Below, piece after piece: positions 18,448-31,978 of a stretch of 37,750 nt of DNA (its first letter is position 1; every line of letters begins with the position of its first letter). A program made the translations under genes and the position numbers. A model generated the notes under the pieces. It made no database searches and had not been told where the DNA came from. It saw only the letters and a list, made by a program, of their open reading frames with translations. Source of the stretch: Patescibacteria group bacterium. Its GTDB lineage: Bacteria > Patescibacteriota > Minisyncoccia > Phycocordibacterales > JACOZG01. The stretch spans positions 1 to 37,750 of the forward strand of contig JBBTRZ010000010.1 in assembly GCA_038064935.1 (NCBI GenBank), read 5' to 3'.

Positions 18448-18519
18448 GGCCCTATCGTCTAACGGTTAGGACATCGCCTTCTCAAGGCGGCAATCCGGGT
18501 TCGATTCCCGGTGGGGTCA
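18448..18519 (+). tRNA. tRNA-Glu (anticodon CTC), CCA not encoded
   Basis: Cloverleaf: GGCCCTA/TGGGGTC acceptor, TCGCC-TTCTCAA-GGCGG anticodon arm, CCGGG-TTCGATT-CCCGG T arm. Confidence 0.96.
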
Positions 18520-30624: not shown

Positions 30625-31002
30625 ATGAGCATAACTGAACGCTTAAATAAAATCAAGCCCGTGATTCTGCCACTTAACCTCGTCCTCATTGGGACGCTCG
30701 GTTTCGGCCTCGGGCGTTATACGCGGATTGAGGAGGCGAAGGTACCGGTCATGATTGAGCAGACAACTTCGACAACAGCTTCAGGAACTTCGGTCACGGC
30801 TTCACCTAAAGAAGCTTCTGAAACTATCGAAGCTAAATCTGCCGGAACCTTGGTTGGTTCGAAAAACGGCACGAAGTATCACTACCCGTGGTGTGGTGGT
30901 GCCTCGCGGATTAAAGAAGAAAATAAAGTGTGGTTCGCTTCCAAAGAAGAAGCGTTAAGTAGGGGATATACCCCCGCCGCCAACTGCCCGGGGTTGAAAT
31001 AA
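30625..31002 (+). CDS. Membrane-anchored protein with an Ada-type metal-binding C-terminal domain
   Basis: TM, Thr/Ser linker, GSK.G.KYH.PWC...I...N..WF.S.EEA...GY.P..NC. Confidence 0.75.
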
Positions 31003-31418
31003 AAAACCCTGAAACCACGTAAGTGATTCCAGGGTAACCCACGCACCTTGTCTACCCCGACAGCGGAGCGTTTCTTTGGGGGTCTGGGAATTTTGACCCT
31101 TGTAGCTTCCAGTTGTAACGGGTAAGAAGCAAACCCGGCATCGAATCGATCGTTTCAGTAGCTTCAGTAATCGTTGGGGTTTAGATGGTCTAGCGTTCGA
31201 TGCCCGACCTTTTCCATTTTCACCACAACGGTCAATTCATCTGGTGGCGGATGAATCAACAAGACAACACCCGCGTGCCACCAATCCCTTGCTTGCTTCC
31301 GGCCTATACGGGTTATAGGGCAGAAGGAGGAGGGACAAATTGGGGGCTCATTTCCAAGCTTGCACCTCGTTAGCCAGGAAACTTAATACATTCATGTATC
31401 TTGAGCCCTCAACTTCTA
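31001..31418 (-). ncRNA. Candidate large structured ncRNA (about 420 nt)
   Basis: TTGACA(31452-31447)-16-TATACT(31430-31425) promoter, terminator 31001-31035, many helices, no ORF of 60 aa or more. Confidence 0.55.
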
Positions 31419-31528
31419 CCAGCCAGTATACACGAATACTAAATCCTGTCAAGGTCGGGGAGTGGAAGGGTTTAATTATTTAGATTGGGTCGCACAATAT
31501 ACCTTTTCCGTCCTGACCCAGTTGATTT

Positions 31529-31978
31529 TTATACACCCCAGCATTTTTCGCTCCAGTGCCAAGGCCGATCGCCGTCGCGGGCCATGAGCCACATGGCGTA
31601 GCCGATATTCCCTTCGGCCGTGTAAATATCGAAGCCAACCGTGCGACTCTGTTCTAAGTGATATTTCTCATTAATCTGGAAGACACCGACATCGCTCCGA
31701 TTTTTCCGACCACGCACTAATGACCCATCGGGATGGTATTGCTGGAGACGACTCTCACACCGGGCAATTTCGAGCGCCGCGGTCCCATCCACGCCGTAAT
31801 GGGCGCTGGACTCCTTAATGAGCTCGGAGACGGTATAGCCGCGCATTTCCACCACCGCCGGTTGGGTGGCAAAATTTGCGCTCGGGGGATTGACCGTGCC
31901 ACCCACGGCTCCAGTGGCCAAAGAAGCTAGTTGAGACAGAGCCGTCAAGCCGGTTAGACCAATAGTGTTGAAGTTCAT
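31529..31978 (-). CDS. Secreted lysozyme-like/lytic transglycosylase domain protein
   Basis: IARCES catalytic Glu, GVFQIN, NI.YA..L....G..PW..S..CW. Confidence 0.8.
   Translation of the reverse strand: MNFNTIGLTGLTALSQLASLATGAVGGTVNPPSANFATQPAVVEMRGYTVSELIKESSAHYGVDGTAALEIARCESRLQQYHPDGSLVRGRKNRSDVGVFQINEKYHLEQSRTVGFDIYTAEGNIGYAMWLMARDGDRPWHWSEKCWGV

Follow-up and report, generated by a model that had tools for sequence, protein, structure and literature searches.

A putative structured non-coding RNA gene of about 415 nt with a patchy distribution in groundwater Parcubacteria

The window analysed here is a 37,750-nucleotide stretch of a Patescibacteria group genome (GenBank assembly GCA_038064935.1, contig JBBTRZ010000010.1, positions 1 to 37,750). 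Between a 125-aa hypothetical gene (30625-31002, plus strand) and a 149-aa hypothetical gene (31529-31978), neither of which has a Pfam match and which show 56–69% identity across the genus, it holds a spacer that raises a simple question: what does this DNA encode? The original prediction, made from the letters of the window, was a densely structured transcription unit without an open reading frame, interpreted as a novel large non-coding RNA. Support for that reading came from comparison with Rfam, from shuffled sequences, from stop codons in the reading frames and from compensatory changes between homologues. In our view there is roughly a 75% probability that positions 31452-31000 of the window (minus strand) constitute an independent gene for a structured non-coding RNA of ~415 nt, belonging to a family outside Rfam. 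The host genome (G000 below) comprises 639,780 bases in 40 contigs and is 94% complete.

The unit is delimited by the following signals, where the homologues referred to are the six distinct sequences described further below.

31447..31452, minus strand: -35 box TTGACA, found as TTGACA at the same place in 6/6 homologues
31425..31430, minus strand: -10 box TATACT after a 16-nt spacer; TATACT, TATAAT or GATACT in the five homologues of family f1
31000..31420, minus strand: predicted RNA of ~415 nt, bracketed by promoter and terminator and indicated by folding energy
31000..31035, minus strand: intrinsic terminator with its stem at 31006-31035 and its U run at 31000-31005; the stem covaries in the homologues

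The near-consensus promoter noted at the outset (TTGACA-16-TATACT, 31452..31425) matches 11 of the 12 consensus positions, and it ranks best among the three promoter-like sites found in 1.7 kb, against a chance expectation of 1.3. The terminator, whose orientation had also been read correctly, consists of a hairpin with a 13-bp stem (31035..31006, minus strand) followed by a U run, and it adjoins the convergent 125-aa gene at its stop codon. Both the -35 box and the terminator are present in all six homologues, among which the terminator stem differs in sequence; a clear -10 box is seen in the five that belong to family f1. The RNA would be transcribed from a strong promoter of its own, with a predicted start near 31417-31420. 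The GC content of the RNA region resembles that of its flanks, and no tandem repeats were found within it.

The description of the unit as lacking open reading frames proved accurate. The longest frame on the minus strand encodes 34 aa and overlaps the promoter, and stop codons interrupt all six frames of all six homologues. Under the alternative genetic code 25 there are stop-free frames of 166 and 174 aa, each of which reads through two TGA codons; this code was rejected, as the neighbouring genes are normal under table 11 and no such frame is kept in the homologues. A decayed protein gene is likewise not what we find, since every frame is stopped in every homologue and the substitutions are of the kind that compensate within RNA helices. 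The folding energy of the region is better than that of shuffled sequence. Positions 31001-31425 have a minimum free energy (MFE) of -150.9 kcal/mol, compared with -129.0 ± 6.7 kcal/mol for 100 dinucleotide shuffles (z = -3.25, with none as good), and repeating the calculation for the 417-nt unit yielded z = -3.67 (none of 60 shuffles as good). The z-scores of the six homologues are -3.7, -4.3, -6.8, -4.3, -4.4 and -1.4, the last being that of the G129 copy.

The fold that we propose would comprise a 5' domain (P1/P1b), a core (P2, P3 with the pseudoknot PK1, and P4) and a 3' domain (P6, P7, P8 and the terminator). Its elements are given below in 5' to 3' order of the RNA, apart from the second strand of each pseudoknot, which follows the first.

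31337..31415, minus strand: 5' domain; P1 (31402-31415 with 31337-31350) encloses P1a and P1b
31385-31400, minus strand: P1a, a lineage-specific hairpin inside P1
31351-31381, minus strand: P1b, a hairpin inside P1
31361..31371, minus strand: P1b loop AACGAGGUGCA, 11 nt, nearly invariant, containing GAGGUG (AYGAGGURCA in 6/6)
31285..31335, minus strand: P2, formed by a pyrimidine strand, UCCCUCCUCCUUC (31323-31335), and a purine strand, GGAAGCAAGCAAGGGA (31285-31300)
31277..31283, minus strand: PK1 5' strand UGGUGGC, in the strand joining P2 and P3
31242..31248, minus strand: PK1 3' strand GCCACCA, in the loop of P3
31231..31260, minus strand: P3 hairpin (31250-31260 with 31231-31241); 11 pairs, 4 changed on both sides
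31172..31230, minus strand: P4, a long hairpin (31222-31230 with 31172-31180, plus an inner helix)
31196..31204, minus strand: 5' strand of the proposed PK2, GGCAUCGAA, at the tip of P4, complementary to 31137-31145
31137..31145, minus strand: 3' strand of the proposed PK2, UUCGAUGCC, 50 nt downstream of the 5' strand
31119..31137, minus strand: P6 hairpin; 5 pairs, 2 changed on both sides; missing in G002
31080..31099, minus strand: P7 hairpin with a conserved A-rich loop, AAAAUYCC
31041..31071, minus strand: P8 hairpin, of which the outer 5 pairs covary

In the 5' domain, folding each sequence singly yields P1 and P1b in the MFE structures of all six homologues, and their stem sequences differ from one homologue to the next. 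P2 contains two identical C/CA internal loops and has an invariant pyrimidine strand; its 12 pairs are 100% paired, with three changed on both sides, and its apical hairpin (31302-31321) is variable and covaries. We regard PK1 as the most telling structural element of the predicted fold. Its seven pairs are 100% paired and include two independent compensatory changes (in G024 and in G129), and it was absent from the model that made the alignment. PK1 takes the place of a long-range GGCA/UGCC pairing suggested by RNAalifold, which is broken in G129, where PK1 is compensated. The helices of P4 contain 15 pairs, eight of them changed on both sides. The apical part of P4 carries GGAAAAGG as well as the 5' strand of PK2, and the P4 region is not alignable in G129. 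The tip of P4 probably pairs with the downstream 9-mer to form PK2. This pairing had already been listed as a helix in the original prediction, and both strands are indeed kept without variation in five of the six homologues, but they are absent in G129; covariation is uninformative for PK2, since its strands never vary.

The multi-domain fold appears, from the aligned homologues, to be conserved through compensatory changes. In the core alignment (A9, six sequences) 95.3% of 299 cells are paired, and 18 of 54 pairs have changed on both sides, a number reached by 0 of 500 shuffles and compared with 1–5 for slid controls; these counts come from a hand-drawn structure on a model-made alignment, which was fitted to a model with helices 1 and 3–6 (P2, P3 and P4) and so leans towards them, and with six distinct sequences, of which four are close, the counts do not represent independent events. 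In the 3' domain (P6, P7, P8 and the terminator), 14 of the 26 predicted pairs are compensatory. The most conserved letters sit in loops, junctions and pseudoknots. Among the other helices proposed originally, GGGCUCA/UGAGCCC, CCUAUA/UAUAGG, AUUCAUC/GAUGAAU, CGGGU/ACCCG and GGGUC/GACCC are conserved and covary, and UCCCU/AGGGA is conserved in all six sequences but is invariant and so shows no covariation. GAUACA/UGUAUU turned out to be specific to this genome, and the long-range helix UUGUCU/AGACAA is lost in the closest homologue, that of G003.

The RNA resembles no family in Rfam 15. When the whole window was searched against its 4,227 families at the gathering score, one tRNA was returned, outside the RNA region; ARAGORN likewise places the tRNA of the window (tRNA-Glu) at 18448-18519 and finds neither a tmRNA nor a tRNA at the RNA region. 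With E values up to 10 the sole match in the RNA region is to the terminator-like NsiR1, at 18.8 bits compared with a cut-off of 39, and at E values up to 1 the five homologous loci gave one tRNA and nothing else. The spacer of G005 described below was likewise without an Rfam match. There is no covariance-model match in Rfam 15 to OLE, ROOL, GOLLD, raiA, HEARO, group I or group II introns or the small ribozymes. A literature search, with subscription journals and supplements outside its scope, found no description of such an RNA. Since there is neither a match in Rfam nor an account in the literature searched, we rate it as a new RNA family, and the newness is at the level of the family, mechanism aside.

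Six distinct homologues were identified, five of them in the family of the window (31 genomes) and the sixth in a different family within the order. BLAST searches of 60 relatives detected the RNA, in full or in part, in G003 (78% identity), G002 and G027. Further matches in G010, G004 and, for a second time, G002 are limited to 29–41 nt in the promoter region and were excluded from the homologues. A covariance model of the core (R1) identified the RNA in five of the 31 family genomes (G000, G002, G003, G027 and G024), the G024 copy being more divergent at 82.8 bits. A second model (R2), run on 151 genomes, added the copy in G129 (43 bits), which belongs to the other family (f100), where one of ten genomes has a match; a 20.7-bit match in G089 is a false positive inside a protein-coding frame that was judged by eye to be FtsK-like. 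In the class sample of 151 genomes R2 matched G000 alone. Scans with an exact pattern gave a similar picture, with matches in two of the 401 genomes of the order sample. Among the contigs of all species-representative genomes the pattern occurs at four true loci and at two others that we did not count as true (L022, with no model match, and L024, at 14.2 bits). Eight stretches of metagenome contigs contain it; three of these are genuine and duplicate the sequence of G002 or that of G027, and five have no model match. There were no matches among viral contigs. The carriers are labelled as Patescibacteria-group MAGs. The RNA is restricted to a few groundwater Parcubacteria, with a narrow and patchy distribution.

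The genes that flank the RNA at the six loci are as follows, where names without a Pfam call were read from translations.

G000 and G024: the 149-aa and 125-aa hypothetical genes, near rpmA, rplI and an M23 peptidase gene
G027: a TatD-like gene and the MetRS gene
G003: a holB-like gene and murG
G002: an SMC-like gene and the RNase R gene
G129: a YafQ/RelB pair and miaA

Neighbours differ in four of the six loci, the downstream gene is convergent in five of six, and no protein gene is constant beside the RNA. Two spacers could be compared in filled and empty form. Site A, between the 149-aa and 125-aa genes, which also occur in G024, holds the RNA in G000 and G024 and is empty in three members of the genus of the window (~38 nt in G003 and 60–70 nt in G002 and G001). 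Site B, between murG and the holB-like gene, is filled with the RNA in G003 and is empty, at 16 nt, in G000. Such reciprocity between two species of one genus indicates an accessory, relocating cassette, and the promoter, RNA and terminator change place as one unit. By eye, neither target-site duplications nor consistent terminal repeats are seen when the filled and empty forms of sites A and B are compared, and with borders lacking consistent repeats in this comparison the cassette was not classed as a transposable element or MITE. Given its patchy occurrence and changes of place, the RNA may form part of the flexible gene pool that these small genomes exchange horizontally. The original prediction of a non-coding RNA is supported, but it missed the two pseudoknots, did not show how narrow and patchy the distribution is, and overlooked that the location of the gene varies between genomes.

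We note that in G005 site A is occupied by a gene for a 193-aa class I SAM-dependent methyltransferase (L039:2013-2591), and that ~40 nt of left-junction sequence are common to G005 and G000; taken together, these two observations make site A look like a hot spot for cargo exchange. At the G129 locus, the YafQ-like toxin and RelB-like antitoxin pair (L035:614-1161) lies directly upstream of the RNA gene, and a tRNA gene is located at L035:2684-2767.

Parts of the window stretch are contained in seven sequencing runs, of which one is a metatranscriptome and X4–X6 are DNA. The metatranscriptome supplies a single contig of 215 nt that matches 31191-31405 with three differences, lies wholly inside the RNA and is accompanied by none from the flanking genes. 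Since strand and ends cannot be read from a contig and DNA may have been carried over into the library, we take it as a weak hint that the RNA is expressed.

What the RNA does can be approached through its architecture. Its best-conserved letters are those of loops, junctions and pseudoknots, and none of the flanking genes is common to all loci; on these grounds it would act in trans as a folded molecule, forming either the core of a ribonucleoprotein or a machine or assembly made of RNA alone, and would be neither an antisense RNA nor a cis regulator. A whole-genome search for complements of the conserved loops found nothing beyond chance, and the analysis brought up no partner protein or activity. 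A more far-reaching reading, which we consider rather unlikely, is that of a protein-free RNA cassette that is spreading among co-occurring groundwater Parcubacteria, comes to lie in intergenic spacers and has a product, a ribozyme or an RNA-only assembly comparable to those of ROOL, GOLLD and OLE, that serves an accessory function.

It is also conceivable, if rather doubtful, that the gene is a non-autonomous mobile element or encodes the RNA of a conflict system (defence or counter-defence) whose protein partner is located elsewhere. The patchy presence, the reciprocal filled and empty sites within one genus, the methyltransferase cargo that G005 carries in the same spacer and the toxin–antitoxin pair next to the G129 copy all point in this direction. 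Against it, no gene for a transposase, integrase, reverse transcriptase or nuclease was found within 2 kb of the RNA at any of the six loci, and the missing repeats and duplications at the borders and the lack of viral-contig matches described above also tell against such an element. This explanation overlaps with our main one, a trans-acting folded RNA, rather than excluding it.

An association with the ribosome or with translation, in which the RNA docks on the 30S subunit or sequesters ribosome-binding sites, is unlikely. It is suggested by a Shine–Dalgarno-like GAGGUR in the P1b loop of all six homologues, by CCCUCCUC, likewise in 6/6, and by the CCUCC-rich strand of P2, which we take to resemble the anti-Shine–Dalgarno core of 16S rRNA. 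However, the CCUCC strand is already paired within P2, the loop has no complement elsewhere in the genome, and GGAGG precedes only one of the 31 long ORFs of the window, as judged from crude start calls. The 3' end of 16S rRNA is unassembled in G000 and the carriers checked: the G000 assembly gave no 16S match, and those of G003 and G024 contain 5' parts only. As a separate observation, several ORF starts in the window have a TAnAAT-like box 6–8 nt upstream of the ATG, which suggests, with the same crude start calls, that many mRNAs are leaderless.

It is highly improbable that the RNA is a cis-acting leader or riboswitch, the 3' UTR of a neighbour or a messenger for a very short peptide. Downstream of the GAGGUG there is a 12-codon ORF (31315-31353, minus strand) that includes three consecutive prolines, but it is found in G000 and G003 only; G027, G024 and G129 have no AUG for it, in G002 the conserved tract lies in another frame, and the tract itself is invariant at every codon position. 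In G027 the TatD-like gene follows on the same strand, but a strong terminator closes the unit, and at the other five loci the gene that comes next is convergent.

We give virtually no weight to a divergent housekeeping RNA (RNase P RNA, tmRNA, SRP RNA or 6S RNA), for which the size of the transcript, near that of RNase P RNA and tmRNA, and the failure to detect SRP RNA and 6S RNA in the genome could be cited, but which is refuted for the first two by full-length copies elsewhere and is at odds with a presence in five of 31 family genomes and with the lack of a relevant Rfam match at E values up to 10. The RNase P RNA (RF00010) of G000 is located at C2:41413-41806 (92 bits, covering the full model) and its tmRNA (RF00023) at C19:28930-29343 (97.5 bits); neither model matches the RNA region, and both of these RNAs are encoded on other contigs. 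We note that the RNase P RNA, although the whole model is covered, scores below the Rfam gathering score of 100 bits, so standard annotation would miss it. For 6S RNA (RF00013), whose ~185 nt form a rod with a central bubble, there is no match in the RNA region at E values up to 10 and none was found in G000, and the fold predicted here is multi-domain, not a rod. The SRP RNA models (RF00169 and RF01854) have no match in G000, even at E values up to 10, and SRP RNA is likewise absent from all 31 family genomes. G000 has no SRP_SPB or SRP54 domain (Ffh, FtsY) and no Ffh M domain, the latter search covering G000 alone. SRP54-type GTPases above the cut-off occur in none of the 31 family genomes, and in the order sample of 31 genomes the same search gave partial P-loop matches only. 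That Parcubacteria have lost SRP was published in 2015 (PMC4508563). The lineage thus lacks the SRP GTPases, the loss is on record and the RNA occurs in few of the genomes, and for these reasons the view that this RNA is the missing SRP RNA was dropped.

In several respects the RNA is like the ornate non-coding RNAs OLE, ROOL, GOLLD and raiA. Its length is several hundred nucleotides, and helices and pseudoknots are numerous; loops and junctions hold the invariant letters; the gene comes with a promoter and a terminator of its own; and its distribution is patchy and lineage-restricted, with no obligatory adjacent protein gene. OLE, ROOL and GOLLD are larger than this 415-nt RNA. ROOL, GOLLD and OLE form RNA-only or RNA-rich assemblies (PMC12286853). 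The present RNA differs from the four in that it has no sequence or structure match to them (Rfam 15, E values up to 10), that its hosts are Parcubacteria, not Bacillota or phages, and that it is a single-gene cassette which relocates. With RNase P RNA and tmRNA it shares a similar length, a pseudoknotted fold and a stand-alone gene with its own promoter and terminator, but it matches neither model and is found in a minority of related genomes. It can also be compared with the IscB/TnpB omega RNAs, the IS110 bridge RNAs, the retron and DRT non-coding RNAs and the TIGR arrays, which are structured and linked to the flexible genome. These guide and template RNAs of mobile and defence systems adjoin their protein gene, whereas here no such gene is found within ~2 kb at any of the six loci, there are no tandem repeats and there is no Rfam match.

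To our knowledge, large and elaborately folded bacterial RNAs of no known function are rare, and each new class of which we are aware has led to new biochemistry. The Parcubacteria (Patescibacteria/CPR) live as episymbionts, have not been cultured and, with genomes of ~0.6 Mb, have dispensed even with the SRP pathway. An RNA gene of 415 nt under a strong promoter is therefore unlikely to be idle in them. A mobile cassette consisting of a single gene, without any protein gene, would be unusual, and if the reading as an RNA-only cassette is correct, the RNA would represent a new ornate class with an accessory function in some of the smallest bacterial genomes known.

Just past the stop codon of the 149-aa gene at site A lies a further hairpin (31487-31519, minus strand), outside the RNA gene, whose loop and 3' arm (AAAAGRUAUAUUGUGCGAC) are conserved. 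It is kept in the six genomes compared (L039–L042 and L025 included), with or without the RNA gene, and may terminate the 149-aa gene or serve in regulation or recombination at the hot spot.
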